DNA of 63,932 bases, filler included, from Nemertoderma westbladi (taxonomy: Eukaryota; Animalia; Xenacoelomorpha), in NCBI GenBank assembly GCA_032718475.1. It is 3 parts of 3 records of this genome, joined end to end, with 100 filler letters (N's around TTAATTAATTAA, not from the genome) between each part and the next. Parts side by side here need not be neighbours in the genome. Positions count along the whole stretch, not along the records: positions 1 to 18,563 come from JAUCBJ010002652.1; 2 more parts are not named here. One strand, 5' to 3'. Both the position numbers and the translations under genes were made by a program. The stretch's first letter is position 1; every line of letters begins with the position of its first letter. Under the pieces are notes generated by a model. It ran no database searches, was not told the origin of the DNA, and saw only the letters and a program-made list of their open reading frames with translations. Below are positions 8-57,950 of the stretch, in pieces.

Positions 8-203
8 ATGCACCACTGTCTGCACCACTGTCTGCACCACTGTCTGCACCACTGTCTTCACCACTGTCTGCACCACTGTCTGCACCACTGTCTGCAACAC
101 TGTCTGCACCACTGTCTGCACCACTGTCTGCACCACTGTCTGCACCGCTGTCTGCACCACAGTCTGCACCACTGCCTGCACCACTGTCTGCACCACTGTC
201 TGC
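8..203. repeat. 12-bp minisatellite (ctgcaccactgt)n, about 16 copies
   Basis: Direct tandem repeat; produces the spurious HHCL ORF; followed by tgcttaacgtttacaccc. Confidence 0.95.
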
Positions 204-269
204 TTAACGTTTACACCCATGATATAGCGACATTTATACATTCTGAGATAACTAATGGGTCAGCCAGAC

Positions 270-1120
270 TTATATGATATCGAATGATGCACACCCGTTG
301 CTTGGAACATGGCTTGAAAGTCCGAAAAGAGGATGTACGTTTGATACTCTGGTAGTTGGATCTTGAGAGTATCGATTGGAGGCAATCTCGTAGATTAACC
401 AGGAGAGAAAGAAAGAACTCCAGAAAGACCAAAATTTTGACAGTTAACTTTGAAAGCCCTCAGCAAGTCTCTGATCTGATGAGCATAAGCTCAAAAGATG
501 GTATGCTTGAGCATGTTGATAACTTCTGTTACCTGGGATCATGGATCCGGAAGTCAGGTGAGGACCTTCGAATACTAAGGGAAAGGCATGGGCAGCCTTG
601 AATAGGCTTTCCGGGATTAGGAATGCACCGAGAATTAATCGGAAACTTAAGGTCCGATTATTTAGAGCAGCAGTAGTTCCAGTACTCCTCTATGGGAGTC
701 CATGCTGGGCTCTAACTGCTGAGGACACCAAATCTCTGGATGCCACATTCACAAGAATGCTACGCCGGGTTCATTGTGTCAAGTACAATGCACACATCTC
801 CAACCAGACACTATATAACATTGGAGGTGTCTCATTGGTTCCCCCAAGCTTGACACTAGAACAAAATCGCCTCCGCTTTGCAGGACATTGCTTTCGCCGT
901 GAGGACCAGCCAGTGCATAATCTTGTACTTTGGCAGCCTCATGGAGTGAATAAGCATGGTGTACAGCTCATGACTTTCTTGAGACGCATCTTAAAGGACA
1001 CTGGCCTTGAAGATGCGGATGATCTAGCAAATGTCATGGGTGTTAGGGAGTTGTGGCGGTGCAATTTTGTCGATAAGCCGACACAGCATTCTTAAAAATG
1101 CAGCTGCAATGCAGCATGCC
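270..1120 (+). mobile_element. Degenerate 3' part of a non-LTR retrotransposon (RTE-like) ORF
   Basis: ORFs 356-601 and 598-1095 contain FCYLGS, KVRLFRAAVVPVLLYGS and RLRFAGHCFRR, typical of the region after RT; frameshifted; related copies at 54560-55040 and 55580-56440 on the minus strand. Confidence 0.85.
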
Positions 1121-1129
1121 GATCCTAGT

Positions 1130-1230
1130 AGGAGAGAATATTTCGCAAAGGGACCCAACTACATACGGCACCTGGACGGCTACGATAAGCTCACTCAAGC
1201 CTTACGGTATATGTGTCCTATTATGCAGGA
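1130..1230 (+). mobile_element. Short integrase/transposase-like remnant
   Basis: Translation RREYFAKGPNYIRHLDGYDKL resembles the GPNxxWHxDGYDKL motif I recall from metazoan integrase-core transposon proteins; very short. Confidence 0.45.
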
Positions 1231-2454
1231 CACCAGCATAACCACGCAGGACCTAACAGCCTATCGAGTAAGGACCACTCACAGAACCTAATGATGCTTT
1301 TTTACCCACTTTCAGGACTGACTGACTGGAAAGTCTGCCTGGCACTGGTAGTAAATCGCTGAGCAAGAAGGTATGGTGAGGTGTCTTCCACAGATGAAAT
1401 AATTACTGAATTATGAATTATAGCGTTATAGGCTAACCACAGAATAACCTAATTCATATAGCTTTATAGTCTCTTGCTAGCTAGTATGTAATACTGGAGT
1501 AGAACTTAATTAAACCTCTAAAAAGGACACCGACCAATAACATGACAAGTCTTCTAATTCAATATATTGAGTTAGCGAGCATGTGTCTTCTGACTCAATA
1601 TATTGAGTTAGCGGACATGTGTCTTCTCTAACTCAACAAGTAAAAAAAAGAGGATTTCATGTCCTCTAAGGGGCTCCGTAGTTAAGTGATGTTTTCTAAG
1701 ATATTATTAATTCAATCCATTGAATTTTACATTATATTATATCGTATTTCAAATAGGTTAATTGTTGTTATGTAAGCCGTGAAGTTGCATTACTATATGT
1801 CTTCACCATCACCATTATCATTATGCACAGATCCATACTTTAGGCCTACTTAGTAAAGAAACTTGATTTTTTCATTTATCTAAACAGCGGATGGTAACGT
1901 ATATTATTGTATTGCCAAGGCGATTTAAAACTATGTAAATTTATAAGATATTTTTACTTTCATCAAATAACTAACTTTTTGAAAAATATTTCAGAAACAA
2001 CATGATTGAATGTTCTAACTTTTTGCACAATAAGAGGTTTACATGACACACTCTATGACGACTTGAGATTTTCACTCTCATGCTCCCTTCAACCTAATCA
2101 CATAATATTATAACTGCATCGATCGTTATTTTTTAATCAATTTATACTATTAATATTTATGTAATAGTATACAACTACACAACATACTAGTATATACATA
2201 GATACATACATACATACACAATACACATATATAGACAAACCTGAAAGGGATACTGCTGTACTTGGGAGAAACGAAGTTGCGAAAACTATTGAAAAGTGGG
2301 AAGCCTGGAAGGACCTCATTTCAACTGTCTGTGCTCAGTTGACCTAGTTAGTGGTAGTAGTATAATTTGACACATGCATGCTACTGATTCACACCCATGC
2401 TATAATTATCATTGGGAATTATAAAGTCGCCCACCCTTTAAATTTCTAAATGAT

Positions 2455-2545
2455 AAACATATATCAGTTAAACATATATCATATTTCATATCAGTTGAAC
2501 ATATATTATATTTCATATCAGTTGAACATATATCATATTTCAGTT
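2455..2545. repeat. About 27-bp tandem repeat, 3 copies
   Basis: catatcagtt(g/a)aacatatatcatattt repeated. Confidence 0.8.
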
Positions 2546-3645
2546 CATAATCTATCTTAGTGAATTTGAATAGGTTCGGAGATTTAAATTTGACGACAGT
2601 AGTGAAAAATTAATTTCTTGACCAATTAATGTGTGTCGTGTAAACCTCATGCCATCAGAAGATTTCATTATGTACAGAAATTGGCGCATTTAAAGCAAAA
2701 CATAATTTATGTCTTGCAACAACTGAAATGTAAAGCGAAACTAAGTTTAATGCTACGGTTATGGGAAATGACTGCCAATGGTCATTCTTAAAACTTATCT
2801 CATCATGGAATTCATGGGCATTTGCTTCCAACGCATCAACCAAAAGAATGAAAGCAAAAATATAAATTCTGACTCAACCAGTAAGGAGGATGGAGATGGT
2901 AATATAACCGTTTCAATTTCATGCAATCCCATAAGATTTGTAGATAAATTTGGGGGGTCACTAAATTAGGACACTATATTTCGGGGCATGGTGTATAGTT
3001 AATAGACCTCTAAGTATTCTTAAAACTATTTTTATTTTAATATTTGTGTATACTTTGAGTGCATATATATAAAGTAGTGTGGTAGTTGTAGTTGTAATGT
3101 AATAAATAATTTTACTTTAATAAATTGTTTAATGTGTTGGTATTACATATTTATTTACTAGGCCCAAGTTCGACTTCATTTTTTGGATATATTTTACATT
3201 TCCATAATCGGTTCAAAAACACCCTGTAATAAATATAATTCATCACAATTCATGTTTTAAATAATGGTAAAGTTGATGGCGTTGCACAAATGCCCATGAT
3301 AACAAATTCATCAGTAACAACACACTGTAATTCCCTATACTAATATCTATTTACAAACATACTCATCAGTTACCCAACCATATACTCTATACATGATAAT
3401 ATCCCAGGAATCCACAGGAATGATGTGTAATGATAAGCAGCTAGGAATGGGAGCCCCAATTCGTTATCAAGATGACCAGGGGCACTCACTAGTAGTGCTA
3501 CCGGTAACTAACAACACAGTATCAGTATGATATTTACACCAGTCGTGTCACATACAGAATGACAATCAGAACTCGACCTTTCCTTTCTATGAGATTAAGA
3601 TTACTCGCTTCTTCATATAAATATTACTGAATTTAATTAGCATTA

Positions 3646-4019
3646 GGGGCCGTCCAAGTATGACGTCAGCACTTTAGGGGGCGGGGGGTTGGGAAAATCT
3701 GATGACGTGCTGAAGAGGGGAGGGGAGAGGGTCAGCCAAAATCTGACGTCAGCATGTTCATTTATAGGTGCTAGAAGAGAAATAGCAGAAGAGTAAATAG
3801 CTTGCCTATTTTAATTGTTCGAAGCCCCCGAAGGCCCGTAGCACGACCTTCTGTTTCAGTTACCAGTCACCATGTTTCAGTGATTAGGACGCGAAAATTT
3901 TTTTAATTTGATTTAGGGGAGGGGGGGGGGGTCAACGCCTATCTGACGACATCTGATTTAGGGGAGGGAGGGGGTCAACATTTTGGGGAAAAGTGCAGAC
4001 GTCATACTTGGACGGCCCC
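3646..4019. mobile_element. MITE, PIF/Harbinger (Tourist)-like
   Basis: About 30-bp terminal inverted repeats ggggccgtccaagtatgacgtc...gacgtcatacttggacggcccc flanked by TTA on both sides (3643-3645, 4020-4022). Confidence 0.88.
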
Positions 4020-4633
4020 TTACAACACAACAAACAGCCTTTACGAAACACTGCCTAAGTGTAAACTAAGATATTAGGCCATCACAACCACGGATCGAAA
4101 CTTACGACATATCATAACGGCACCACCGTATTAAGCAGTCCAAACTGTAAACTAGACTTAATATTAAGCCCATATGAAACTCTCCACCAACCCTCCACAA
4201 ACTAGTCCATTTACAAAAGTACAAACAAACTTACTTTTTGCTAAATAGCTGAATTTCTCATGTAGCATCATTACGCAGATACAAGAACGCAAAATAACAC
4301 GAACATGTGGAACGTGGCGTGGCGTGGAACATGGCGTGGACAACACCAAATATATGTGTATGATGTGACATGATGTGACACACTTCTGACCAATTTTGAC
4401 AACAGTTGTTGCAGGAGTAGTGGTCGTGTTGACTAAGTATATTTTTTTTAATGAATAAATTTTATCTTTAATTAAAAATGTGCTGAAAATCTATTCACTG
4501 TGACTTTCCTTACCAAATAAGAGATATATTGTACAGAAACGTATAATAATTTTTATCGTTTTTGTAGCGTATTTATCTGTTATAGTGATTAACATCGTAT
4601 TATTTTCATTTCTAAACTATTAATTTTATGCAG

Positions 4634-4958
4634 TATAACCCTAAAGGTGTGGATAATGAGTACTACCAGCCCTCCAGTGAGTGGTTTGTAGAAACCGCAT
4701 ATGCCGATGAAGACGAATCACAATCTAAGGCTCGGATCATTTTAACTCTAAAAATAACTCGTAAATCCACCTTCTTCACATTTAACCTGATCCTCCCCTG
4801 CGGTCTGCTCACCGCTGTTATTGTCTTTTGCCAATATCTGCCTTGCACGTCGGGCCCACCAAAGGTACAAATAATCGTTTCATTATTTATGGCCATGGCG
4901 GTTTTTCTGTTGTTACTCAATGAAATTATGCCTAGTTCTGACGATCTACCGATTATTG
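4634..4958 (+). CDS. Cys-loop (nAChR-type) receptor subunit, alternative exon A: end of ligand-binding domain, M1, M2, M2-M3 loop
   Basis: Acceptor ttttatgcag|, donor G|GTAAGT; translation SSEW...LKITRKSTFFTFNLILPC...LPCTSGPPKVQIIVSLFMAMAVFLLLLNEIMPSSDDLPIIG; starts in phase 0, ends in phase 1, 325 nt. The acceptor position is less certain than the donor. Confidence 0.85.
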
Positions 4959-5515
4959 GTAAGTATTCCCCCGCTGCCCTCGTCCGCACCAAGCATGTCT
5001 GCTGGTTGGCAGCCCATTCAGCCCAAAATGTACATGCATTACTGTCTGTGTCTGCTACTCAGTTATTCACCAAACGTTTCCGTCAAATTAAAGTAAAAAT
5101 ATTAAGAATTCCCTGAATCATATAAAACTTTCAATAAATTTTCCAATTATGGATAAAAGTACCGGTAGTATTACTAATATTCCAATATTGTTGAAGACCA
5201 TATTATTATTATCAAAGACAAACAATATACTGACATGTATAACTAAAGATATAAGAAAAGAATCTAAAAAAACATTAAGTAAGAAAACATGACCATTTTG
5301 CCATATTCCAATTATTGATTGAATAAGTATAAAATATACAAGTACTTTCGATGCCCAAGGTTTTTTTATTTCAAGTTGTTTTTGCTTTATACGTAATATT
5401 TTTGGGTGTTTCAGACAATAACATGGACAGAATGCGTATACAAATTGGATTTTTACTTTTCATTTAATTTATTGCTTGTTTCACGTTTGTTTTTGTTTAA
5501 TTTTGCATCATTTAG

Positions 5516-5846
5516 GTTGATATGGAAAACTTTATAACTAGTTCCGAATGGATATTACATAACGCCTTCACCACACCCATGGTGACCTTTTACAATGACA
5601 CGGATTTAGCCCCGTACTATGCCGTTTATTTGACACTAAAATTAGAACGAAAGTCCAAATTCTTCACCTACAACCTCATTGTTCCATGCACAATGCTAAC
5701 CATCCTCATTTTATTGTGCCAATTCCTACCATGCACCAGCGGCCCAGCCAAAGTTCAGATTATCGTGGCACTATTCATGGCGATGGCAGTTTTCCTGGTT
5801 CTAGTTGGGAACATGATGCCTAGCAGTGATAGTGTTCCTATCTTGG
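5516..5846 (+). CDS. Cys-loop (nAChR-type) receptor subunit, alternative exon B (paralogue of exon A)
   Basis: T-rich acceptor catcatttag|, donor G|GTACGT; VDMENFITSSEW...PYYAVYLTLKLERKSKFFTYNLIVPC...SGPAKVQIIVALFMAMAVFLVLVGNMMPSSDSVPILG; phase 0 to phase 1, 331 nt. Confidence 0.9.
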
Positions 5847-8794
5847 GTACGTTCTAGAATGTTTTAAAAGCATCCCCTCTATGGTGTTTAAAGCATCCCC
5901 TCTATGGTGTTTAAAGCATCCATCCACCCAGTTATTTGTGCGTGTAACCGTATTTTTGTATATATCCTATTTCGGCTGTGATATTGTCTGCATTTCTCTG
6001 CCGATCTTTCTGCTCTTCTGCACAACAGGAACGGACACATTGCATGACGTCCAGACGGTGTAACGCACCAAACAATGGCAAAGCCGGTGTAAATATGGCG
6101 GTGTAAATATGGCACTTCGGAAAATTGTTATAAAGGTTGGATTCCCTTTCCCGATAGCATGGACCATTGTTATATACCAAGTGATCGCCTGAAACTACTG
6201 AAAGATTTTTGTTTTCATTTGAAATTGCATCCTACCACATTTAATTGGGGTTACCCTGATGCTGATATTTCGTGAGATCACTTATGAATTTTATTAATTG
6301 ATGATGTTACTAGAGATTTCCGATCATTTTAGTTTTAATGCGATCCTTATAAATTTCATGCATCCATTTTAGATGTAGTAAAATAAAAATTAGAAAATGA
6401 TTTTTAAAGAGGAAATTTTCAAAAGAAACTTTGATAATTTCACATATTTAATTGTTGATTCATGAGGTGTTCTCTATTTAATTGTTCATTCATGATTTCA
6501 TGCGATCAAACAGCTCATGCTTCATGCTATAGTCGCGGTTGGAATACACCTTTACCCATAGACCAACACAATATTGAACGATTTCTATTGGTGATAATTG
6601 AATATAACATTTTCTAATAGATATACCTGTATTTATTCTTCAGCTATAAATTATTTAAAAAAACTACTTCGTAGCTTAATAATGACATAAAGACATTGGG
6701 TGGCATAGGTCGTGTGAAATGGGTGAGATATAAAAATATTGCACTCCTAATAAATTATTACAAACTTCATTCAGTAGTCGTTTGCAAACTTGGAAAATTT
6801 GAAATTTAATATTCATTAATAATAATAAGATTGATTTATATTAATTATTACTTTTTAAAACAAATTCTAAAATTATATAATTATGCTACCAATTTAATTT
6901 GAGAATTCAAATTATATTTATTATTTGACTGCAAAGAAAATTTAAACTCACCCATATTTTTTAATTAATATTTTGTAATAACCCGTTGAGTGTAAGCAAA
7001 ATTTTCGAACCAAATCAATACACATTACCCTTACCAAAGATGCAGGTGAAAGTAACATATACGGGTTTTTCTAACCAAAACAATAAACTAAATAATCAAT
7101 TAAATATTAGGAAAAAACTGCAGGCATAATGATCTTAAAACTACTGCATACTATATATTTTGTATTTTAAAAACATATAAGTTATAACGTTAATAAACAT
7201 AAAATCAATCATGTTTGATAAAGAAAATAGTCGGCAACAAATATAATGAAGTTTTCCCAAGAAATATTCAAACGCCAAAAAAAATTTATTCCTAAAATCT
7301 TTTTTCCTTTCAACACTTTTCCAAAAAAAAAGCAACTAAACCCAAATATACAGACAAAATTTGCCAAATTGACGGTAAGCATTTTATTATAATGTGACTG
7401 CCAAAGAAAACGTAAATTCACTGAACAATTCACTCAAAACTTTGTCTGAAAAAAAATATTTTAGTAATACCAGGGGGAATATATCTGGTTAATTAATGCT
7501 AAATTTTGTTGACGATTCGTGATTTGAATAATGAATTTTGTGGCGCTCCACGAGAAAAGGGACCTTAACCGGTTTTTTCGAAATTTGAGTTAGGGGTTGA
7601 TTCAGATAGATAATATTTTTGACAGCATTTTGAAAAAAAATCTTTCGAATTGGTCAACTATTCGCAAAGTTATTCTAACTTATGTAAATGGTATCTGGTT
7701 AATAGCAAATTTTCAGAAACTGAGAAAAAGCACTTTAAAGTTCTACATCTTTTTTATCTTTTTATCAGTCTGTATGAATGTCTGTATGTCTGTCAAAAAA
7801 TAGGAAATGCTGACCAATTAACTGAAATTTACGCCCTTGGGGATTTCTCTAGTCGCTGATTTCATTTCCGATGTCAGTGTTCACATTTTATATAATGTAG
7901 ACTGTCTACATCACTAATTTATTTAAAAATGATGATAGCCCTACATTGTTAATGGTATAATCTTATATTTATAGCTGAATGAATGAATACCTGTAATAGG
8001 TTTGGTTAGTTTGAGGGAAGAGGGAAGATCGAGCTATTTTGGGGTGTTACACCGGGTATATTTTGTTATGGCAGCTGGTGTGTAGCCCAGAAATTTATGA
8101 CATAGACTCGCACCATCATGATCTCTTATTATAGTAGGCCATGGCACCATCTATGCTTTTAGTTTTCAATGTTGGATGTTCACGTAAATATTAATATTAT
8201 TTTTCTCAAATAGAATATATAACATAATATTATATAAATCGATAACTTATAATTAGTTCGAAAAAATATATCTATTTTTATATCCATTTCAATTTCTAAA
8301 ATATAAATATTCATATAATTTATATTTGCATGGTGAGGCATGATCTGCGTGAAATGAATTATAAAGTGCATCTCTCGAAATCGCACCTTCTCTGAAGTTT
8401 CAAAGAATAATGGGACATTCTAAAACCTCGGTAAACATATTCTAGTCAAAACCCACTTCTGAAATAAAAGCACAATTTCATATGTCTTTATAAATTCTGT
8501 CGGAATGAAACTAAACATCATCACGAATTTTTAACACTGTCCTGTTCACAGACTAGTACTCAGTCAGTCTAGTCGTAAGGCAATAATTTCATTGATCTAC
8601 GTGATAAGTTGAAGTCTAACGTACAATAACTAAGAAATAGCTGGATTTAGTAATATTCTCCCCTCTTGCTGTAAAACTGCCCGATCTTGTAGTAATGAAC
8701 CGATTGTGCAGACCTTTACTGTAATTTACCCTTTAATTGTCACGTCACAACAATCCTGTAAGCAACTGATTAATATTCACTTTTACGCAGGAGG

Positions 8795-8896
8795 CAAGCA
8801 GGACGCAGCGGTATGCAGGACGCAGCGGCATGCATTAGGCAGCGGCATGCAGGACGCAGCGGCATGCATTAGGCAGCGGCATGCAGGACGCAGCAG
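8795..8896. repeat. Short GC-rich tandem repeat (gcaggacgcagcggcat and variants)
   Basis: About 6 imperfect 16-17 bp units. Confidence 0.75.
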
Positions 8897-10439
8897 AGAA
8901 CAACTTACGCGAGATAGGAAAGAAAATTTGATAATCTGCATTTTGAGTTGAGCGCCATTTTACTGCTGCAATTGGCCAAAACTTTTTTATATCAAGGGGA
9001 TGGCAAAACACATTCTTAAAATATTCTTTACTTTCATATGAAATTTCCATCATATTAATTCACGTTGGGCATTTATTTATTTCACTTCACATGTATGATT
9101 TAATGTATCAAATAATATGTTTTATACTAACATGGTTGTTTGCTGTTGCTTGCTAATAACTGTTGAATGGGTAGGCCTATCTATAAATTTATGATCTGTA
9201 ATTAATTACATGTTAATATATTCTAACAAGTACTATTAAGATGGCCAACTGTAATGATAATATTGATTGGAGAAAATTACGAATAAATAAAAATTTAAGT
9301 AAAATATAAATAATCAAACGACCGATAGTATTGGTCATGGTCATTGGGCATGACCGACATTTTAATACCGGTCTGGGAGGTCGGGTCCCCCCAGAGCCCT
9401 GCACCATCCCCCAAGGTGAGCGCCCTCCTTGGCCGTCGCCCGCCGCACAGGCATAGCGAGTTGGAGCGAAGGAGCGCGAACTGTATGTGACAGAGGAAAT
9501 ATTTATTGTCTAAATGAAATATTTATACCAAATCACTATAAATATAGAGCAGGTCAATCATTCATTGAACTCATAACATTGTTTGCTCACCTGTATTTGT
9601 AATAATTTGATTGAGTATTATCTCGGGAACCTCATTGTTCAGTCCCTCATCCGTTACTTTGGTTTCCACCACTACCGGTGACCTGGCTGGTTACTGGATG
9701 GAGTCTTCTCTACTCATATAATTAATATGGAATGTCTTGGAATTCTATTGAATTGCTTTGGCTAACAATTTGAATAATCATTTAAATATATCGGAAACAC
9801 TGTTGGATTATATAGTGTTTTCGATAATTAATTCAGCTGCTAATTATGTAAGACAATGTCCTGATTCTCAAAACAATAATGTTAATTTACAATATTAATA
9901 GTTATATATTTATGTTGTTAAGAATTATTGTTTATTTTTTTGAATTTTGATAAAAATTTCATTCAGTTTAACAACAGGATGCTTGGAAAGACGATGAAGG
10001 GCCAATTAATTATTATTAAACAGTAAATAAAGTAAGCTTTATTTAACGCTAGTCCCGAGATTATTTACCGAACAATAGTGAAGAGAGTCAATAAGGAAAA
10101 TAAATTATAATTATAAAATATTATCCTAATTAATAAAAATACGCATTGTTCATTATATCCCTTCGCGAGACATTGTGTGCTATTCATATCCCGGCAGGAT
10201 GTAATGTGTCGAATATCATCCATGTGAATTACTACTACAGTATATATCCCGTAAGCGTAAACTGAATTTTGACGAATAGCAGATGTGCCAAGCAGATACT
10301 GTCCAATGTGGGGACTTTCGGACATTACTTTATTATACTCTTTAATTCGGACTAGCCGACAATACGGTCAATAAAATTTACAACATACATTTACAATTAA
10401 TTCACAATGAAAGTAGATTAATCACGACATAGAGCGTGA

Positions 10440-11930
10440 AATGAATAAAAACAATTGAATTAAAGTTATTGAATATTCCGAATAAAATGATCTGGCTAAA
10501 AAAGCAGTAAAAATCGATCTAAAACCGATTAAAATACGACTAAATGATGGCATAAAATTCCTTTAATCGTTTCAGTTTTTCCATTATGTGACCTCTGGTG
10601 ACCTCCAGTTTGGTATTGGTATTGAAACTAGCTTGACTAAATTAAAATACGTCCTTCAATGATATGATATAAAATGGCAAACAAATGAATTAAAACAATT
10701 GAATTACAGTTATTGGATATTCCGAATAAAATGATCTGGCTAAAAAAGCAGTAAAAATCGATCTAAATCCGATTAAAATACGACTAAATGATGGCATAAA
10801 ATTCCTTTATTCGTTTCAGTTTTTCCCGCAATGTTAGCGATTGGAGGTCGAAGCAGGCCGCAATGAAATCAGCGTTCCCAATATCTGTGAAGGTCGGCGC
10901 GCCCATAACCATCCGGTTTAAGATGGAGTCCTTCGCGTAGCGGTATATTAGAATGGACTCGAGCCGTGGTAGAGGGTGCTCGGTGGAGGCCGCTCTGTAG
11001 CCGCCGAGAACCCCTGGGTAGGAGCCTCTCCCCCGTCTCCCGGACAGGCTGGCGATTGCCAGGGGATGCAAACGCGCTCTGGAGGGCTTTGTTGGGGCAC
11101 TCGTTGTACCGCACGAGTGTACCAACCGATAGCCGGAAAGCCTCCAGCGAGATGGGTTTCAGCTGGGTTAGGTGGTAGAGTGTTGAGTTCCCAATGTACG
11201 GTCCAACACACAGCAGACTCCTGAGGGCGTTCCTGTAAACCACGTCGAGTTTTCCCAATTCAGTTTGAGTGAACGCCCCGATGTTGAGTTTCAATGAGTA
11301 CAGGGCAGCCGGTAGAGCGACGGCGCGCCACAGGTTGGCAACGGTCGCCACCGGCAGCCACCGGGTCGTCCAGCCCTTCGCCTGGAACATCCGTGCGAGG
11401 GCGATTATCTTCTGGGCCGAGGCGCCCAGAGGGTTGGTCTGCGACTGGGCCAGGTTATAGCCGAGGAAGGTCCAGGATTTACTGCGCGGGAACAGCGGTT
11501 TGCCAAGCCGGAGGAAGGACGGTTGGTGGCAATTCCTTTGGTTTGAAAATACCGTCCACTTAATTTTGCTAGATTCGACCGACAGTTTTATATCATTGGC
11601 GGACTTGCTGAAGACCATAAATAGAGTTTCCATATCTTTTGGATTGTTCGTCATTAGTAAGAAATCGTCCGCATATGATATGGCTCCCAACCAGATTGAA
11701 TTGATTGTATATCCCACATGGGATTCGTCTAGGTTGTCCAGTATGCTTCTTGTGTACAGGTTGAATAGGATCGGTGATAACAAGGATCCCTGTTTAACGC
11801 CTCGTCGAACAGAGATTCCGTCACGATCGATCAGGCCGTCGAACTTTAGGTACAAGGTGCTGGCCATGTAGTAATTGAGCACGGTGGCGACGATGTGAGG
11901 GTTAACGAACTCCATCATCTTCCGACCCAA
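10440..11930 (-). mobile_element. 5'-truncated non-LTR retrotransposon in the receptor intron
   Basis: ORF 10869-11930 has RT motifs GVKQGSLLSPILFNLY and YADD; probably continues by frameshift into ORF 10784-11125; GC-rich compared with flanks; about 140 bp at the 3' end is duplicated (10441-10582 vs 10687-10826). Confidence 0.85.
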
Positions 11931-11989
11931 TGTTAATTACTCCTGCAATCCTACCAAAGCATTAATTAAGCAATTTAGAAAATGAATGG

Positions 11990-12235
11990 GAAAATCTTTT
12001 AGGCTCGTTAAGCCAAGGAATGCCTGTTCACCACCATGGGTGATCTTCCACAATAAACCCTTCCACTCTGTTTCACAAGTTGCCTTGGTTCCCATTTACC
12101 AACCATCCAAGGATGAAAGCCAGGGTTGGGCTAGACTGCAGCATGTATAGCACTGTGCCCAAATAGTACTGCTCCATCTAGGGATCGAACCAGGGCTCCC
12201 AAATTGGAAGTCATGAATTTATAAATTTAAGCGAA
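11990..12235 (-). mobile_element. Degenerate tRNA-derived SINE-like fragment
   Basis: Minus strand has a B-box-like ggttcgatccc (12181-12191) followed by non-tRNA body sequence. Confidence 0.45.
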
Positions 12236-12239
12236 TGTA

Positions 12240-12638
12240 GTGTTGCTTAAGTTCCACCTTGGTGCTGTTTAAGTTCCACCTTGGTGTTGCTAAGTTCCAC
12301 CTTGGTGTTGCTTAAGTTCCACTTTGGTGTTGCTTAAGTTCTAACTTTGTGCTGCTTAAGTTCCACTTTGGTGTTGCTTAAGTTCCACTTTGGTGTTGCT
12401 TAAGTTCCACCTTGGTGTTGCTTAAGTTCCACTTTGGTGTTGCTTAAGTTCTAACTTGGTGCTGCTTAAGTTCCACTTTGGTGTTGCTTAAGTTCCACTT
12501 GGGTGTTGCTTAAGTTCTAACTTGGTGTTGCTTAAGTTCCACCTTGGTGCTGCTTAAGTTCTAACTTGGTGTTGCTTAAGTTCCACCTTGGTGTTGCTTA
12601 AATTCCACTTTGGTGTTGCTTAAGTTCCACCTTGGTGT
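12240..12638. repeat. 22-bp minisatellite (gcttaagttccactttggtgtt), about 18 copies
   Basis: Direct tandem repeat with ccac/ctaa variants. Confidence 0.95.
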
Positions 12639-13166
12639 CACTCGGCTGGTTGATTTGAATTCACATCTTATCGGAAGTCGTGGGTTCACCGCTCCTGATT
12701 ATCACAAAAGCTGAGCCTCGGTGGTTTGTCGCTCAAGTCGCAGATTACTAATACTAGAGTCGGCGATATTTTATTTCAGGAATGAAATTTCATATTATAT
12801 AGAAATAAAATAAGCTTTATATCCCGATATCTCTAAGCAAATTATGCAGTATATCCGGGTTCGGCGGGATTTAAAGCACTATTTTATGTTATCAATAATT
12901 ATTCTTCAACTTTACCTTATCGGCCCTCGGTCTTACTTATTGAGCTCACTCGTTAGGCTCGTTCGGTAAATAAGAGATGACTTTTTATTTGATTTTGGAC
13001 AAGCGGTATATAAAGACTTTTATCTACTGTACAATAAATAGTTAAATAATATATCGAACGACAGCACCCATTTTCGAAAATTTAAAAGAACTGTAATATT
13101 GTTTATGAGATACATACAGCGCCATACAGCGTTAATACACCGCCACCATTTTGCAATTTATTTTAG

Positions 13167-13783
13167 GTCTCTATTATGGTGCTAATATCCTACTGATTCT
13201 CATCGCAACAGCGATTAACGTTATCGTATTGAACATATGCAAGATGGACTGCGCGATGCCCCGGTGGGTTCGGGTGGTATTCCTGCACTACTTCGCGACT
13301 CTAACTCTCTACCCAAAACGGGCGAAGATTCCGCCGAAACAGAGTCGACATCACGTAAACTCTTCCGGGCGATGGGGCGACTCGCCGATCGCTTCCGACT
13401 CGATTCGGTTGCGGAACTTCTCCGGCGCAAACCGCGGCAATTCCTTCGACATCCACGGCAATGTGACCACGTCCTCGGCGATAGACTCGAGTCCGTTGCT
13501 AGGTGACGATAACTTCTACCTTATACAGAACATGCTGGACCAGATTCTGATGCATTTAGAACGATTTAACGCTAAACAAGCAAAGAAAGAAGAGAAGGCA
13601 GAGATCATTTCTGAGTGGGTTGATGTAGCGATTATAACGAATCGCTTGTTATTGTTTGCCTTTACTGTATTCGCGATAGCAATGACCGCTACCGTATTTC
13701 TCGGTTTCCCTCGAGAGTTAATTAACAATCAACAATCTGTGGAATTTAAAGAAAGAGACTTTAATGACACTAATAGTTTATAA
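13167..13783 (+). CDS. Cys-loop (nAChR-type) receptor subunit, terminal exon: M3, intracellular loop, M4
   Basis: Acceptor ttattttag| in phase 1, compatible with both exon A and exon B; LYYGANILLILIATAINVIVLNI (M3), MPRWVRVVFL, and EWVDVAIITNRLLLFAF (M4) match nAChR architecture; stop at 13781-13783. The N-terminal exons were not found in this window. Confidence 0.9.
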
Positions 13784-15480
13784 AAAAAAGAGTAATAAGC
13801 TCGTCGATTGTCACACTCAATTTATTAAGCGCGTTATTTTTTTTAAATAAATGTCTCGAATTAATTAGAATATTACGTATTATTATATTAATTATTTATT
13901 AGTTCATTTTTAGATATATAGGTTTTATTGTGAAACTAGTTTGAATACAACTTGTGCAGCTAATTGTCTAAAAATTAAACAATCTTGAATGTTATATAAA
14001 CAAAGATTTCGATTATGAAAATCAGGAAATTAGAACCACTGGAGTCAATAGCACAGGTTACAGTTTCATTTTTGTGCTCCTCTCACCCCCAGGGGCGGAT
14101 CCAGACGCGGTGAAAAGGGGGGGGGGGGGGCAAGTGTTCCGCCCCATCACCCCCAGGGGCGTATCCAGACGGGGAGAACACCCCCCCCCCCCCCCCCCTA
14201 CTGCACAGTATAAAACAGGGATTTTGACTAATGAGAAAAATATTAATGAACAAGTTCATGTCTATTTAAAAATACTTATTCCGATGCCGGTTGCCATTGA
14301 TAGTTAACAGCACTATGGGTGATTTATGGAGAGGAATTATGAAATTTTTTACATTTTTGAAAAATATAGCTATTTTTCAATAACTAAAATTGGATACGCA
14401 AAGGTATTGCTTAGGGGGTCATAATAAGTAATTCACAACCGTGACTTGGGGTCATGTTATACTTTCGTAAAAATCAATAATATTAATAGCTAAGTATGTA
14501 GGAGCTACTGTATCTATTCAATACAAGAACAATATCGCATGTATTATGAGTAAGAAAATACATTGTGGGAAATGACATTATGATTCACCCTCGTGCTGAA
14601 CACTTTTATTATTATTACCTTAACAAAGATACAATCAATGAAAGATAATAATTAGCTACTACCTACAAACAATTATTGCTTGTAAAGTAGTAGAGTTCCT
14701 TTAGAGCATTTTTCATCAACTCGAAATTTAATGAAATAATGTACCACTTTATAATTTAATTGCAATATGGTAATGAACAGTAAATAAATTATAATCCGGT
14801 ACCAGTAGGCATCTACCTGTTTTTAATGTATATGCCTGTATGTATAGATATTACATTAAAATAATATTGATATTTGTTTATATTCGGGCGGTATATCATA
14901 AGCCACTCCTTTAGGGATTCGACCAACGGCCATTGACCATTGGACAGAAACCAAAAGGGACATTGATGAGGGACAATAAATAATAAATAGGCATAGAGGA
15001 CTAACATAATATGAAGTCTAACACGCTGTAAAATATTATAAACCAATTGAAACCATTTTAATTAATTTGAATTTGATTTAATCAGATACTTCTGATATAT
15101 CGTGCGCGCCGCGGCGCAGGGCGCCCCAATGCAATGTTACTGGTACCATGAATTCAATCCTGTATTTTTATTTTTAAGAATTTAAAGGCGGAATCGAATT
15201 ATCAAGATTTTCATCTCATTATTGTAGTGATACGAACTCGCCACACTAAATGGCTCGCCCCATACCAGCAGATACTCAGGGACTGCGGTAATGTAGGGAT
15301 GACTCACGATGAGTCATGGACGACGCCCTGACACAGACTCGGGATACTACCTACCGGCTACCGAGTGGACAGGACAGCAGTTAGGTCTAGTCAGGATACT
15401 CACTACCGGTCATAGGGCACACTGCAAGACAGACGGCCCAGCACTATTGTTTGTACTTAGTCTAAGTATATATTTCAGAT

Positions 15481-15713: not shown

Positions 15714-17061
15714 GTCTCACCTACCAAGTAGACTGGACAGCAGTAGTTACTGTCTGTATAGCTAGTCATATATATTTGATACAGACAGCCCAGCACTATT
15801 GTTTATACTTGCTCTGACAATATATATTTGATATTATTCCAGACGGCCCAGCACTATTGTTTGTACTTGGTCTGACTATATTATATTTGTTATTCCAGCT
15901 CTATCATATATATATTCGTGACCTCCATACCATTATTAGTTTCATATCAGCGATATTATTGCTAAGGTATTTAACTGAATATTATTAGTGAAATGCTCTG
16001 ATTTTATGACGACGAAAATGGTAGTAAGTTACGGGAAATCGTATCACGCACTCCAATCACGTGGATAATGAATAATTGCACGCAAATTTTCTGACACCCA
16101 CCCCGCAGAAACTTTATTTCCCGCAGAAACTTTATTTAATTATGATATATATGCATTAATGAATACCCCGCATCTCTGAATACAGTCTCTGTAATTATAT
16201 AGATTCTACATCAAGGGAATACATCAGTATTAATGTAAGAATTGTTTAAAAGTAAGTAATTTTCAAACGCTACTCCGTTTTAATCATATCGCTAAAATAA
16301 TCATAATCAGCTCTTATTTGCGTCCATTTTTCCCCAGAGATGAATTAATATCTATGTTTAACCATGCTAGTGATGTTTTATCATTTCTTCTATAACTGTA
16401 TTGAATATTATTATTAAATGAGTCCATAGAGCTCAATATATTAATCAATTGCTTGTCATGATTATAATAGGGTTTTATCTCGAATTATACAAGCGGCATT
16501 ATAAAATCTGCAAGTCTATTAGGAACTCTACAGCTTGAAGAGAGCCAGCCTACGCACGCATGAGACAGGACTGTTACGCCGCTATAAACCATGGCGTGGA
16601 TAGGAATTAATACGCATTAGTTGAGCATACCCCAGAGCAATCTGTAGGAACCAGATGGGCCTAATAATCGGGTATATATGATAAGTGGGCAAAAATATAT
16701 AAGAAATTGTCTTTGACAAGAATAAATAACTCGTATTAGAATCTTTTCTGCTGTAAATAATGTGCTGTGTATGTAACTCGTTCTCACAAGGTTGGGTTGT
16801 AGTTAAATCATATTTTAATATTAAAATAGTTCACTATTGTTGGAGTATATATATTTTCAGTTTATTAGTTCCAGTTATAAATCATATTATATTTTCACTT
16901 TTCGAGATTTTTTTCCTTACACACCAAATTTGTAAACATTATTCTTTCAGAATAATTTTTCTTTAGCACCATTGTATGGTTTTTCTCTTGTCTTAATTTT
17001 ATTCTAACGCACTATAATTATTTATTTTATTATTTTTGATATTTGTTAAAATATTTAAATA

Positions 17062-18015
17062 ATGTCATTCAATGAAAGTAACCTTCATCCACGGTTGTTT
17101 TGGAAGCTTATATATGTTATCAGTTTGGCATACTCACTGACACTGTTGTATATCTTATGGCAAGACATAGAGACAGTAAGGGCTTTGTTGTCACGTGTGG
17201 AGTTTACCGCAGACATAACTGAGAAAAACCATCAACATGGTTTCTTCACTGTAAATGATGGCGCTGATGACTGCAACAACGTAACTTGGCAACGAATTTT
17301 CGCGAATATCGATATTTTCGCGGTAAGTCACGCTGGTGGATGGTTGATCGTCGCACTATTCTTAAGAAATATTTACGTTTCCTTGACTTTGAGTGTAACT
17401 TGGGAAGTAACGGAAATAATATTTTCGCATCTGGTTCCAATATTCCCGGAATGTTGGTGGGATAAAGTTATATTTGATTGCCTTCTATGTAACGGGTGTG
17501 CTATTTATTTAGCCACATTTATTTCTCGCAAGCTTCACTTAACATCGTACGACTGGTCGAGAGTTGAAACTGCAAAACGCAAAGTGACGATATTTAACAT
17601 TCTCGGATTTTCATCACAATTGAAAGGACGTAGTTTAGAAATTATTTCGTTATTCCAGATATACGTGCTTTTGGAAACTTCCCAATTATGTATATGTATT
17701 TTACAAGTTGTTTTAGATTTTCCCGTAAACCACGGATTCCTTTTAGCTAGGTATATTCTCGTCATGTTAACGGGCGCCCCTGCAGCAGAAGGATTTTATC
17801 GCTATTACTCTGATAACAATTGCAAAAACATTGGCAAACAGGCGTCAGTTTTAATAACATTGCTTGCGCTAGAAATCGCAATATGCCTAAGACACGGACA
17901 CCATCTGTTTACGTTTTTTGATATAGGTTATGTAATTGTTTGGTTATCTATGCTGATGTGTGCCGCTTGTCTAACAGTCTACGCCACAAGCAGTAACATG
18001 CACGTAACATTTTAG
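17062..18015 (+). CDS. Phosphatidylserine synthase (PTDSS1-like base-exchange enzyme), divergent, single ORF, 317 aa
   Basis: Motifs HP..FW, DIFAVSHAGGW, TWEVTE and FPECWWDKVIFDCLLCNG align with PTDSS1 (DIFAFGHFWGW, TWELTE, NFAECWWDQVILDILLCNG); several hydrophobic segments; no introns within the ORF. Confidence 0.85.
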   Translation: MSFNESNLHPRLFWKLIYVISLAYSLTLLYILWQDIETVRALLSRVEFTADITEKNHQHGFFTVNDGADDCNNVTWQRIFANIDIFAVSHAGGWLIVALFLRNIYVSLTLSVTWEVTEIIFSHLVPIFPECWWDKVIFDCLLCNGCAIYLATFISRKLHLTSYDWSRVETAKRKVTIFNILGFSSQLKGRSLEIISLFQIYVLLETSQLCICILQVVLDFPVNHGFLLARYILVMLTGAPAAEGFYRYYSDNNCKNIGKQASVLITLLALEIAICLRHGHHLFTFFDIGYVIVWLSMLMCAACLTVYATSSNMHVTF

Positions 18016-18563: not shown

Positions 18564-18663
18564 NNNNNNNNNNNNNNNNNNNNNNNNNNNNNNNNNNNNN
18601 NNNNNNNTTAATTAATTAANNNNNNNNNNNNNNNNNNNNNNNNNNNNNNNNNNNNNNNNNNNN
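18564..18663. other. Assembly gap with synthetic TTAATTAATTAA linker
   Basis: 44 N + ttaattaattaa + 44 N = 100 bp; identical structure at 49079-49178. Confidence 0.97.
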
Positions 18664-24065: not shown

Positions 24066-26043
24066 ACACCGGACACTGGTACGGTTTAACTTACCTCGCG
24101 TGACATACCGGACACTGGTACGGTTTAACTTACCTCGCGTGACACACCGGGCACTGGTGTACGGTTTAACTTACCTCGCGTGACACAACGAGCACTGGTG
24201 TACGGTTTAACTTACCTCGCATGACACACCCGACACTGGTACGGTTTAACTTAGCTCGCGTGACATACCGGACACTGGTACGGTTTAACTTACCTCGCGT
24301 GACATACCGGACACTGGTACGGTTTAACTTACCTCGCGTGACACAACGAGCACTGGTGTACGGTTTAACTTACCTCGCATGACACACCCGACACTGGTAC
24401 GGTTTAACTTACCTCGCGTGACACAACGAGCACTGGTGTACGGTTTAACTTACCTCGCATGACACACCCGACACTGGTACGGTTTAACTTACCTCACGTG
24501 ACACACCGGGCACTGGTGTACGGTTTAACTTACCTCGCGTGACACAACGAGCACTGGTGTACGGTTTAACTTACCTCGCGTGACACACCCGACACTGGTA
24601 CGGTTTAACTTACCTCGCGTGACACATCGGGCACTGGTGTACGGTTTAGCCTACCTCGCGTGACACACCGGGAACTGGTGTACGGTTTAACTTAACTCGC
24701 GTGACACACCGGGAAGTGGTGTACGGTTCAACTTAACTCGCGTGACACAACGAGCAGTGGTGTACGGTTCAACTTAACTCGCGTGACACACAGGGCAGTG
24801 GTGTACGGTTCAACTTAACTCGCGTGACACAACGAGCACTGGTGTACGGTTTAACTTAAAACTCGCGTGACATACCGGACACTGGTACGGTTTAACTTAC
24901 CTCGCGTGACACACCGGGCACTGGTGTACGGTTTAACTTAACTCGCGTGACACACCGGGCAGTGGTGTACGGTTTAACTTACCTCGCGTGACACACCCGA
25001 CACTGGTACGGTTTAACTTACCTCGCGTGACACAACGGGCACTGGTGTGCGGTTTAACTTAACTCGCGTGACATACCTAACACTGGTACGGTTTAACTTA
25101 CCTCGCGTGACACACCGGGCACTGGTGTACGGTTCAACTTAACTCGCGTGACACAACGGGCACTGGTGTACGGTTTAACTTAACTCGCGTGCCACACCCG
25201 AACCTGGTGTACGATTTAACCTACCTCGCGTGACACACCGGACACTAGTACGGTTTAACTTACCTCGCGTGACACACCGGACACTGGTACAGTTTAACTT
25301 AACTCTCGTGACACAACGGGCACTGGTGTACGGTTCAACTTAACTCGAGTGACACACACGACACTGGTACCATTTAACTTACCTCGCGTGACACGCCCGA
25401 CACTGGTACGGTTTAACTTACCTCGCGTGACACACCGGGCACTGTTGTACGGTTTAACTTAACTCGCGTGACTCACCCGACACTGGTGTACGATTTAACC
25501 TACCTCGCGTGACACACCGGACACTAGTACGATTTAACCTACCTCGCGTGACAACACTAGTACGGTTTAACTTACCCCGCGTGACACACCGGGCACTGGT
25601 GTACAGTTTAACTTAACTCTCGTGACACAACGGGCACTGGTGTACGGTTCAACTTAACTCGCGTGACACACCCGACACTGTTACCATTTAACTTACCTCG
25701 CGTGACACACCCGACACTGGTACGGTTTAACTTACCTCGCGTGACACACCGGGCACTGGTGTAAGGTTTAGCCTACCTCGCGTGACAAACTGGGCAACGG
25801 TGTACGATTTAACCTACCTCGCGTGACACACCCGACACTAGTATGGTTTAACTTACCTCGCGTGACACAACGAGCACTGGTGTACGGTTTAACTTTACTC
25901 GCGTGACACACCGGACACTGGTACGGTTTAACTTACCTCGCGTGATACACCGGACACTGGTACGGTTTAACTTACCTCGCGTGACACACCGGACACTGGT
26001 ACGGTTTAACTTACCTGGCCTGACACACAGGACACTGGTACGG
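24066..26043 (-). repeat. 39/41-bp tandem array, about 48-50 units, copying the CTCF exon 1 end plus splice donor
   Basis: Minus-strand unit gtaagttaaaccgtaccagtgtccggtgtgtcacgcgag; continuous with the real junction ...CCGTACCAGTGTCCTGTGTGTCAGGCCAG|GTAAGTT at 26015/26014. Confidence 0.95.
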
Positions 26044-27177
26044 CTTCTCTCCGGTGTGGGTTTTCAAATGTCGCTTCAGTTTAAAGTTATCGGCGCAGGA
26101 ATACGAGCAGAGATCGCATTTAAACGGCCGATCGCCAGTGTGGCTGCGTAGATGCCGCTTCAGCTTACTGATTTCCACACTCGCGTACTCACAGTGGGTG
26201 CACTTGTGCGGCTTGTAGAGCGTGTGTCTGTAGCGCTGATGGCGCGTCAACTCCCCTTTGGTAACGAAAGCCTGCACGCAGTGCTCGCAGCGGTGCGGCT
26301 TGGAGCCGGTGTGGATGTGCATGTGCTGGTAGAGAAGGGATTGGAAGCGGAAAGTGCGGTCGCAGTTGGGACACTTGTGCGGCCGTTCTCGGTAGTGGGA
26401 TCGGAGGTGTTTCTCTAAGGTCTCCTGACTAAGGGCCGCGTAGTTGTTGCAGATCTCGCATTGGAAGACCTGTGAGTGGTTGGCAGCGTCGATGTCGTTG
26501 TGAATCTGCTTATAAACATCGTAACGGATTTCTTTACGGATTCCAACATCTTCTTCTTCTTCTTCCTCTTCTCCCGATCCCTCATTGTCGCTGCTGTTAT
26601 TACCGGTTTCGTCGACTTCCGCCGCACCTTCCGTCTCCTCGTCTGGTTCATCGTCGGGGAACTCGTAGATCTCGGCGTTGGCTGTTACGGACGGAGTCGG
26701 AGGCGGTTCGTCTTTAACGCGAACGTCAGTGGCAACGTTCGCCGAACTGTGGCCGCCAGGAGGCGCTGACAGTCTGTCTTGTTGCAGCTGGGAGCCCAGC
26801 AACCCCCCGGCCGTGATGCTGGCCACCGGTATGTTAACGACCCGGCCCTCCGTATCCACCATGACCAGACTGAGGACCTCTCCCTCCCCGGTCACAGTGC
26901 CCACCTGGGGCTGCAGCACGATCGGTTGGTTGGAGCCGTCGACCCCAGAGATCTGGATGGGAGTGCCGAGAGTAAAGCTAGACCCGATCCCCAGCGAGGT
27001 CGCGTCCACGGTCGACATAGAGAAAGCGACAGGCGGTGGGGACGCAGACGGTAGCGGGCCAACCTCTTCATTGTCCACCAAGTAAGCGCCTTGCGGTAAC
27101 TGGTTGGAAAATGTTTCAAGGAAATTGTTAACATCAATTCCTTGGTATGTAGGATCACCTCCGGTTGATTCAGCCAT
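26015..27177 (-). CDS. CTCF: CTCF coding exon 1 (N-terminus, ZF1-5, first half of ZF6)
   Basis: AFVTKGELTRHQRYRHT, YASVEISKLKRHLRSHTG and FKLKRHLKTHTGEKPY are CTCF ZF3-5 signatures; acidic YEF motif corresponds to the cohesin-binding YxF; donor AG|GTAAGT. Spliced CDS is 2160 nt (719 aa) with 11 C2H2 fingers. Confidence 0.95.
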
Positions 27178-40030: not shown

Positions 40031-40172
40031 TGGCTCTACTTAGTCTGCCTGTAGTGCTAATGTTGTTTCGGTAACTTACCTGAACTGAAGGCCTCTACTA
40101 GAGGCAGAAAGCTTGTAACTGTCACTTTATCTTTTGTTTGTGGGGGTCTGCCTTTCTGTATGTATCTTTCTA

Positions 40173-43100
40173 TGTTTGTATCTGTTTGTTTTAGGTAATG
40201 CTTGTATCTGTTTGTTTTAGGTAATGTTTGTATCTGTTTGTTTTAGGTAATGCTTGTATCTGTTTGTTTTAGGTAATGCTTGTATCTGTTTGTTTTAGGT
40301 AATGCTTGTATCTGTTTGTTTTAGGTAATGTTTGTATCTGTTTGTTTTAGGTAATGCTTGTATCTGTTTGTTTTAGGTAATGCTTGTATCTGTTTGTTTT
40401 AGGTAATGCTTGTATCTGTTTGTTTTAGGTAATGCTTGTATCTGTTTGTTTTAGGTAATGCTTGTATCTGTTTGTTTTAGGTAATGTTTGTATCTGTTTG
40501 TTTTAGGTAATGCTTGTATCTGTTTGTTTTAGGTAATGTTTGTATCTGTTTGTTTTAGGTAATGCTTGTATCTGTTTGTTTTAGGTAATGCTTGTATCTG
40601 TTTGTTTTAGGTAATGCTTGTATCTGTTTGTTTTAGGTAATGCTTGTATCTGTTTGTTTTAGGTAATGCTTGTATCTGTTTGTTTTAGGTAATGTTTGTA
40701 TCTGTTTGTTTTAGGTAATGTTTGTATCTGTTTGTTTTAGGTAATGCTTGTATCTGTTTGTTTTAGGTAATGCTTGTATCTGTTTTAGGTAATGCTTGTA
40801 TCTGTTTGTTTTAGGTAATGCTTGTATCTGTTTGTTTTAGGTAATGCTTGTATCTGTTTTAGGTAATGCTTGTATCTGTTTGTTTTAGGTAATGCTTGTA
40901 TCTGTTTGTTTTAGGTAATGTTTGTATCTGTTTGTTTTAGGTAATGCTTGTTTCTGTTTGTTTTAGGTAATGTTTGTATCTGTTTGTTTTAGGTAATGCT
41001 TGTATCTGTTTGTTTTAGGTAATGTTTGTATCTGTTTGTTTTAGGTAATGTTTGTATCTGTTTGTTTTAGGTAATGCTTGTATCTGTTTTAGGTAATGCT
41101 CGTATCTGTTTGTTTGAGGTAATGCTTGTATCTGTTTGTTTTAGGTAATGCTTGTATCTGTTTTAGGTAATGCTTGTATCTGTTTTAGGTAATGCTTGTA
41201 TCTGTTTGTTTTAGGTAATGCTTGTATCTGTTTGTTTTAGGTAATGCTTGTATCTGTTTTAGGTAATGCTTGTATCTGTTTGTTTTAGGTAATGCTTGTA
41301 TCTGTTTGTTTTAGGTAATGCTTGTATCTGTTTGTTTTAGGTAATGCTTGTATCTGTTTGTTTTAGGTAATGCTTGTATCTGTTTTAGGTAATGCTTGTA
41401 TCTGTTTGTTTTAGGTAATGCTTGTATCTGTTTGTTTTAGGTAATGCTTGTATCTGTTTGTTTTAGGTAATGTTTGTATCTGTTTGTTTTAGGTAATGTT
41501 TGTATCTGTTTGTTTTAGGTAATGTTTGTATCTGTTTGTTTTAGGTAATGTTTGTATCTGTTTGTTTTAGGTAATGCTTGTTTCTGTTTGTTTTAGGTAA
41601 TGTTTGTATCTGTTTGTTTTAGGTAATGCTTGTATCTGTTTGTTTTAGGTAATGCTTGTATCTGTTTGTTTTAGGTAATGCTTGTATCTGTTTGTTTTAG
41701 GTAATGTTTGTATCTGTTTGTTTTAGGTAATGCTTGTATCTGTTTGTTTTAGGTAATGCTTGTATCTGTTTGTTTTAGGTAATGCTTGTATCTGTTTTAG
41801 GTAATGCTTGTATCTGTTTGTTTTGGGTAATGCTTGTATCTGTTTGTTTTAGGTAATGCTTGTATCTGTTTTAGGTAATGCTTGTATCTGTTTGTTTTAG
41901 GTAATGCTTGTATCTGTTTGTTTTAGGTAATGTTTGTATCTGTTTGTTTTAGGTAATGCTTGTTTCTGTTTGTTTTAGGTAATGTTTGTATCTGTTTGTT
42001 TTAGGTAATGCTTGTATCTGTTTGTTTTAGGTAATGTTTGTATCTGTTTGTTTTAGGTAATGTTTGTATCTGTTTGTTTTAGGTAATGCTTGTATCTGTT
42101 TTAGGTAATGCTTGTATCTGTTTGTTTGAGGTAATGCTTGTATCTGTTTGTTTTAGGTAATGCTTGTATCTGTTTTAGGTAATGCTTGTATCTGTTTGTT
42201 TTAGGTAATGCTTGTATCTGTTTGTTTTAGGTAATGCTTGTATCTGTTTGTTTTAGGTAATGCTTGTATCTGTTTGTTTTAGGTAATGCTTGTATCTGTT
42301 TTAGGTAATGCTTGTATCTGTTTGTTTTAGGTAATGCTTGTATCTGTTTGTTTTAGGTAATGCTTGTATCTGTTTGTTTTAGGTAATGTTTGTATCTGTT
42401 TGTTTTAGGTAATGTTTGTATCTGTTTGTTTTAGGTAATGTTTGTATCTGTTTGTTTTAGGTAATGTTTGTATCTGTTTGTTTTAGGTAATGCTTGTTTC
42501 TGTTTGTTTTAGGTAATGTTTGTATCTGTTTGTTTTAGGTAATGCTTGTATCTGTTTGTTTTAGGTAATGCTTGTATCTGTTTTAGGTAATGCTTGTATC
42601 TGTTTGTTTTAGGTAATGCTTGTATCTGTTTGTTTTAGGTAATGCTTGTATCTGTTTTAGGTAATGCTTGTATCTGTTTGTTTTAGGTAATGCTTGTATC
42701 TGTTTGTTTTAGGTAATGTTTGTATCTGTTTGTTTTAGGTAATGCTTGTTTCTGTTTGTTTTAGGTAATGTTTGTATCTGTTTGTTTTAGGTAATGCTTG
42801 TATCTGTTTGTTTTAGGTAATGCTTGTATCTGTTTTAGGTAATGCTTGTATCTGTTTGTTTTAGGTAATGCTTGTATCTGTTTGTTTTAGGTAATGCTTG
42901 TATCTGTTTGTTTTAGGTAATGTTTGTATCTGTTTGTTTTAGGTAATGTTTGTATCTGTTTGTTTTAGGTAATGTTTGTATCTGTTTGTTTTAGGTAATG
43001 TTTGTATCTGTTTGTTTTAGGTAATGCTTGTATCTGTTTGTTTTAGGTAATGCTTGTATCTGTTTGTTTTAGGTAATGCTTGTATCTGTTTGTTTTAGGT

Positions 43101-49078: not shown

Positions 49079-49178
49079 NNNNNNNNNNNNNNNNNNNNNN
49101 NNNNNNNNNNNNNNNNNNNNNNTTAATTAATTAANNNNNNNNNNNNNNNNNNNNNNNNNNNNNNNNNNNNNNNNNNNN
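49079..49178. other. Assembly gap with synthetic TTAATTAATTAA linker
   Basis: Same 100-bp structure as 18564-18663. Confidence 0.97.
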
Positions 49179-57732: not shown

Positions 57733-57950
57733 ATAGAAAAAAAAATTAAAAACTAATTTAATTGAGAATCAACTGTCACATGTACAGATGTATGTATACA
57801 GGTATAGGCCTACCGGAACTCTGAAAAGGCTGGAGGCCTCCAAACTGCCAAACCTGCAAACAGGCAGACAGGATAGAGCTTTCATTTGAGAGAAGTTGCA
57901 TGTTTATTCGGCTTAGGCCTATCCATTTATTAAGTTTTAATTTTTGAATT

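Follow-up and report, generated by a model that had tools for sequence, protein, structure and literature searches.

The window analysed here is a stretch of 63,932 nucleotides from the xenacoelomorph Nemertoderma westbladi, and the 3' portion of a Cys-loop receptor gene lies on the plus strand of its first part. Two paralogous exons, designated A and B, precede a single terminal exon C in the following arrangement.

4634–4958 (+): exon A, 325 nt; acceptor GCAG/TAT, donor TTG/GTAAGT; phase 0 to 1; end of loop F, beta9, short loop C, beta10, M1, linker SGPPK, M2 (Glu 20') and M2-M3 loop
4959–5515 (+): intron between A and B, 557 nt, GT-AG
5516–5846 (+): exon B, 331 nt; acceptor TTAG/GTT, donor TGG/GTACGT; phase 0 to 1; same span as exon A, with a full-length loop C, linker SGPAK and M2 (Asn 20')
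10869–11936 (-): reverse-transcriptase (LINE-like) remnant within the intron between B and C; not receptor sequence
13167–13783 (+): coding part of terminal exon C, single copy; M3, cytoplasmic loop, M4 and stop codon TAA (13781–13783)
13846–13851 (+): AATAAA, candidate polyadenylation signal

Exon anatomy and other features of the window

Exons A and B aligned at 56% identity over 111 columns (tblastn, E 4e-35), and no further copies of A, B or C were detected on either strand of the window (next best E 0.05). All three exons matched PF02932 (A, E 2e-6; B, 5e-6; C, 4e-5), with only A passing the curated cut-off. The lengths of A and B are both of the form 3n+1, and each exon is open in frame into the M3-M4 exon at 13167; when A, B and C are joined together, the first codon of B becomes a stop, which precedes the B/C junction by 326 nt. 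Assuming a phase-0 end of the upstream exon, skipping of both A and B would leave 9 out-of-frame residues followed by a stop. The sequence-only reading had described A and B as paralogous and intact, as running from phase 0 to phase 1 in frame onto 13167, and as breaking the frame when included together. Each of these points was borne out. The pair shows the hallmarks of mutually exclusive exons, namely adjacent paralogous exons, equal phases, intact splice sites and a frame-breaking double inclusion.

According to rough in-house scores for the region 200–13200, the acceptors of A and B ranked 5th and 4th among 647 AGs, and their donors 3rd and 22nd among 687 GTs. The 5' end of exon A carries 5 more residues than that of B, the conserved beta9 Trp being residue 17 in A and residue 12 in B. 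An alternative phase-1 acceptor inside A (4647) was rejected, as it ranked only 310th of the 647 AGs. A Pfam search of the 120 plus-strand intronic frames of at least 28 codons between 200 and 13166, including those of the A-B intron, gave no ligand-domain or channel match; therefore, the 5' exons are placed beyond the upstream edge of the window, at a distance of over 4.6 kb. The frame of exon A stays open for 52 codons further into the intron (4959–5116), probably by chance and with no Pfam match, and a MITE-like element with 31-nt terminal inverted repeats (3645–3675 and 3990–4020, 97%) flanking 314 nt lies upstream of exon A.

The genes of the window have few, large exons and few, long introns. 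An intronless phosphatidylserine synthase ORF (PF03034, E 4e-55) was found at 17059–18015. On the minus strand, an intron of a zinc-finger gene, which we take to be CTCF-like from its finger sequences (the Pfam match being C2H2 only) and which as such hints at a bilaterian host, begins with a 2-kb tandem array (24066–26045) with a unit of about 41 nt. This unit repeats the exon end with its 5' splice site, giving 26 intact AGGTAAGT donors, of which the true one is the first, and an in-frame stop follows in each repeat. On the plus strand, a 4-kb array (40172–44223) forms the end of an intron of a TTF2/lodestar-like SNF2 helicase gene. The 26-nt unit of this array is composed of the 3' splice site and the first exon bases; the array contains 154 copies of TTTAGGT, and the last copy enters the coding exon. 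Thus, one window holds two satellites born from splice junctions. A NOC3L-like gene (57948–60330) is present as two long frames that overlap; the frame changes near 58912–58955 in G-rich sequence, through either a sequencing error or a very small intron. The NOC3L-like protein has 37–42% identity to the best 120 matches, nearly all of them from vertebrates, in keeping with a host that has no close relative in the protein database.

Divergence of the two exons and selection on them

Identity between A and B was 12/29 from loop F to loop C, 19/28 in M1 and 17/23 in M2. The M2 segments differ at -1' (Pro in A, Ala in B), 6' (Ser, Ala), 16' (Leu, Val), 18', 19' and 20' (Glu, Asn), and have Gln2', Met9' and Val13' in common; positions -1', 6', 16' and 20' face the pore. 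The sequence-only reading was right that M1 and M2 are similar and loop C very different, but its claim that the pore lining differs holds only modestly. At the level of sequence, the change of the pore is modest and that of loop C is large.

Vicinal cysteines are absent from loop C of both A and B; since an alpha nAChR subunit is defined by these residues (as given in PMC2064938), neither copy qualifies as alpha. When B was aligned over its length to human alpha7, Tyr occupied both loop C aromatic places (C1- and C2-like), and loop C tyrosines are described as belonging to the aromatic box that binds agonist (PMC4006026). The hairpin of A is 7 residues shorter than that of B and lacks both tyrosines; B carries one N-glycosylation sequon, NDT. 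Between the beta9 Trp and the pre-M1 Arg, the spacing is 25 for A and 32 for B, as against 30–31 in the clade relatives described below. A spacing of 25 was seen in 8 of 171 pattern matches, 6 of which are repeats in two bivalve gene models. The PDB matches listed were all nAChR subunits (best E about 1e-12), the best for B being alpha7 and the best for A beta2 and beta4, and the loop of A is 3 residues shorter than that of beta2. Structures predicted for the isolated exon fragments have a hairpin and two helices in both A and B (pLDDT 77 and 80; pTM 0.46–0.47), with hairpin strands at 17–27 and 34–43 in A and at 12–24 and 34–45 in B; the model of A matches nAChR chains by fold, and exon A keeps the invariant residues of the family. 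The beta9-beta10 hairpin, the pre-M1 Arg, the M1 Pro and the similarity of M1-M4 to nAChRs place the gene in the nicotinic lineage of Cys-loop receptors. A and B are the stretch from the end of loop F through loop C and M1 to M2 of a nicotinic-lineage, non-alpha subunit.

Over 102 aligned codons, pS between A and B was 0.80 (saturated) and pN 0.29; for the 73 codons that align well, running from beta10 to the M2-M3 loop, pS was 0.719 and pN 0.232, corrected to a dS of about 2.4 and a dN of 0.28. In none of 2000 bootstraps did pN reach pS. Different codons are used for 39 of the 62 residues identical in A and B; in M2, 11 of the 17 residues that agree show purely synonymous differences. The longest identical run between the exons is 8 nt, on which ground gene conversion between them was rejected; this short run, together with flanking introns no more alike than shuffles, points to an old duplication with no recent conversion. 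With an assumed indel rate, a simulated neutral copy was still intact in 3–4% of cases after 0.1 substitutions per site and in at most 0.5% after 0.5, the former value being 20–24% with substitutions alone. The comparison of dN and dS that the sequence-only reading had proposed indicates purifying selection on both copies (pN 0.23 vs pS 0.72): saturated synonymous sites combined with low protein change suggest that both have been kept under selection. Both copies appear to have been translated for most of their history, a very recent silencing of one being possible. Relative-rate tests against four clade relatives (alignment A5) revealed neither copy to be significantly faster (chi2 ≤2.0). Against a distant outgroup, A had 13 unique changes and B 4 (chi2 4.76), and the branch lengths in the maximum likelihood tree were 1.12 for A and 0.28 for B; the longer branch and the 13 vs 4 changes allow for a relaxed constraint on A.

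Relatives and predicted ion selectivity

A HMMER search against 1.84 billion representatives gave 2527 matches at E ≤0.001. The best single-domain scores belonged to exon-sized ORFs from ENA contigs (P0122 and P0271, 106 bits; P0124, 94), and a second search added further such ORFs, P0173 and P0185. The tree comprised 54 rows and 114 columns, composed of the best full-coverage matches and named rows (P0271 was omitted as a near copy), and held no SmACC or Lymnaea sequence. A and B formed one branch (support 99/100), which sat with five exon-sized ORFs in a group supported at 98/98 and subject to a long-branch warning. The nearest named single-domain matches, alpha9/alpha10-like subunits of hemichordate and amphioxus, fell outside the A+B clade. 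Eight multi-domain gene models (P0121, P0123, P0125–P0127 and P0129–P0131), considered as fused-dimer relatives, were dropped, as they scored by summed repeats and are not close.

P0122, P0271, P0124, P0133, P0173 and P0185 resemble A and B in the stretch QYLPCxSG and in a loop C without vicinal Cys; in P0122, P0271, P0124 and P0133 this stretch continues, as in A and B, into KVQ and M2. P0124 has a Cys-loop. The clade relatives differ from A and B in the linker, which is Asp-Ala-Lys or Asp-Ser-Lys, and in their loop spacing of 30–31. Instead of the usual Leu9', the 9' gate residue is Met in A and B and Thr in P0122, P0124 and P0133, and the clade has Gln at 2'. Among the best 80 of 155 confirmed metagenome loci, no twin exon was found, each locus having one match and most contigs being short; the linker of the clade was likewise absent from the metagenome loci read, drawn from the same best 80 of 155. 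A word-index search of longer proteins with B alone confirmed none of 115 candidates, and matches in the Atlas fell only in generic neurotransmitter-gated channel clusters.

In the M1-M2 linker, B has Pro-Ala-Lys (Pro-2', Ala-1', Lys0') and A has Pro-Pro-Lys; in the HMMER alignment both show a one-residue insertion relative to alpha7 and beta2 and no Glu-1', so that in B Pro-Ala replaces Glu-1' in the manner of the anion motif. The linker was readable by pattern in 99 of 152 search matches: Glu stood at -1' in 91, Asp-Ala or Asp-Ser in four, which are the clade relatives, and Pro-Ala or Pro-Pro in none. Pro-Ala instead of Glu is reported to mark acetylcholine-gated chloride channels of Lymnaea and Schistosoma (PMC4055736), and the extra proline together with the loss of Glu-1' suggests that the channel is likely anion-selective. 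Against this stand the Val at 13' in both exons, since the anion conversion of alpha7 is described as needing the proline, E-1'A and V13'T or similar all together (PMC2233820), the Pro-Pro rather than Pro-Ala of A, and the Asp-Ala or Asp-Ser of the nearest relatives. Selectivity also hinges on partner subunits; non-alpha subunits are reported as able to form homomeric nAChRs (PMC7173930).

Exon choice, alternative explanations and known systems

Overall, we consider it quite probable that the locus is one non-alpha nicotinic-lineage gene with an old tandem exon duplication, in which B with its full loop C and A with a clipped one are likely spliced either-or, in what is likely an anion channel. 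Three observations favour mutually exclusive use: the anatomy, the frame logic and the fact that both copies have long been under selection. A and B are likely spliced in this way onto the M3-M4 exon. An ancient tandem duplication of an exon spanning loop C through M2 would have been followed by the retention of both copies; one upstream exon outside the window would be common to them, and each would be joined alternatively to the single M3-M4 exon. Exclusivity would follow mainly from the reading frame, as the early stop in transcripts with both A and B would lead to nonsense-mediated decay, and the skipping of both to the 9 wrong residues and stop noted above. Isoform B would present an aromatic principal-face loop C, and isoform A may bind agonist poorly or differently.

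Branch-point-like motifs lie 15 and 48 nt before the acceptor of B, more than 500 nt from the donor of A, and given this distance and the 557-nt intron, steric exclusion is unlikely. No clear RNA docking pair was seen among the inverted repeats, and a duplex scan for competing RNA pairing found nothing upstream. Downstream, it gave one site common to both exons at about 11050 (-34.9 and -36.7 kcal/mol; best of 12 block shuffles, -34.4), which lies inside the GC-rich retroelement and was judged to be a chance result. With no steric block and no credible RNA pairing, the frame-based removal of double inclusion would be the simplest safeguard.

One observation against our reading is that the start of A lies 5 codons further from the conserved Trp than the start of B does. 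Such a difference of 5' boundaries would fit a larger duplicated 5' block, with A and B having their own upstream exons or promoter and only the M3-M4 exon in common, that is, two genes with a common tail; moreover, the region that would hold such upstream exons lies beyond the window, and tandem nAChR arrays are described as common in some invertebrates (PMC6896357). We regard this arrangement as improbable, since A and B both begin in phase 0 and, with no ligand-domain match in the 120 frames examined, the exons of B would have to interleave upstream of A. A quite improbable alternative is that a single copy is in use at present, most likely B, and that A, functional for a long time, has become silent or very rare or is in decay. 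The loss of 7 residues and of both loop C tyrosines and the longer branch agree with such a fate, and some insect alpha6 alternative exons are reported to be hardly used (exon 8c in silkworm; PMC1919356). However, A is open, has the stronger donor (GTAAGT), keeps the invariant family residues and forms a hairpin in the predicted model, and the synonymous differences at identical M2 residues also speak against decay; any silencing would have to be recent.

The N stretches elsewhere in the window (18564–18663 and 49079–49178) raise the question of whether two alleles or loci have been joined wrongly by the assembly, but A and B, at 56% protein identity and with saturated synonymous sites, have diverged much further than alleles would, neither gap nor repeat lies between them, and their flanks are unrelated; such an artefact is extremely improbable. 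For the single gene with either-or exons, a more specific and in our view unlikely proposal is that it supplies its own heteropentamer, an inhibitory channel in which the alpha-like, tyrosine-bearing binding face would come from B, and A, with its clipped loop C, would serve as a beta-like structural subunit. The best PDB matches (alpha7 for B, beta2/beta4 for A) hint at this, although they may only reflect loop length. If true, this inhibitory channel would be a nicotinic-derived one from a clade not yet described, and the splicing ratio would determine its pore rings and how many agonist sites it has.

Known alternative exons of Cys-loop receptors alter either the pore or a portion of the binding domain. 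With the cassette described here, loop C and M2 would change together, and with them the beta10-M1 coupling stretch and the selectivity linker, the rest of the subunit being identical. No single cassette from loop C through M2 was found in the largely open-access literature searched on alternative exons of these receptors. A and B may be seen as a natural chimera pair for asking how gating and the role of a subunit are related to the length of loop C and to its aromatic residues. They also point to a little-sampled nicotinic-derived clade in which the linker is of the anion type, 2' is Gln and 9' is not Leu.

The 3' boundary of A and B, after the M2-M3 loop, is presumably at the same place as that of insect alpha6 exon 8, a short M2 cassette of about 87 nt. 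Tandemly duplicated exons spliced either-or are described for the insect nAChR genes alpha4 and alpha6, and the alpha6 exons 3a/3b and 8a/8b/8c are, like those found here, either-or tandem duplicates in a nicotinic subunit gene, exon 8 altering M2 residues including a conserved Glu (PMC1919356; PMC2064938). Exon 8 changes only M2 in a cation-type alpha subunit, whereas the 325/331-nt cassette comprises loop C, M1, the selectivity linker and M2, without vicinal cysteines. The anion-selective subunits of Lymnaea and Schistosoma (SmACC), as described in PMC4055736, belong to the nicotinic lineage and, like exon B, have Pro-Ala for the M1-M2 Glu; SmACC-1 has a YxCC motif absent from A and B, and A has Pro-Pro. 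The nematode gene avr-14/gbr-2, which encodes GluCl alpha3A and alpha3B, is a closer precedent, in that one Cys-loop gene gives two subunits with different channel parts; according to PMC9407656, these GluCl subunits have the same ligand domain and diverge in the C-terminal channel domain, whereas in the gene of N. westbladi loop C would change with the pore and M3-M4 would be common.
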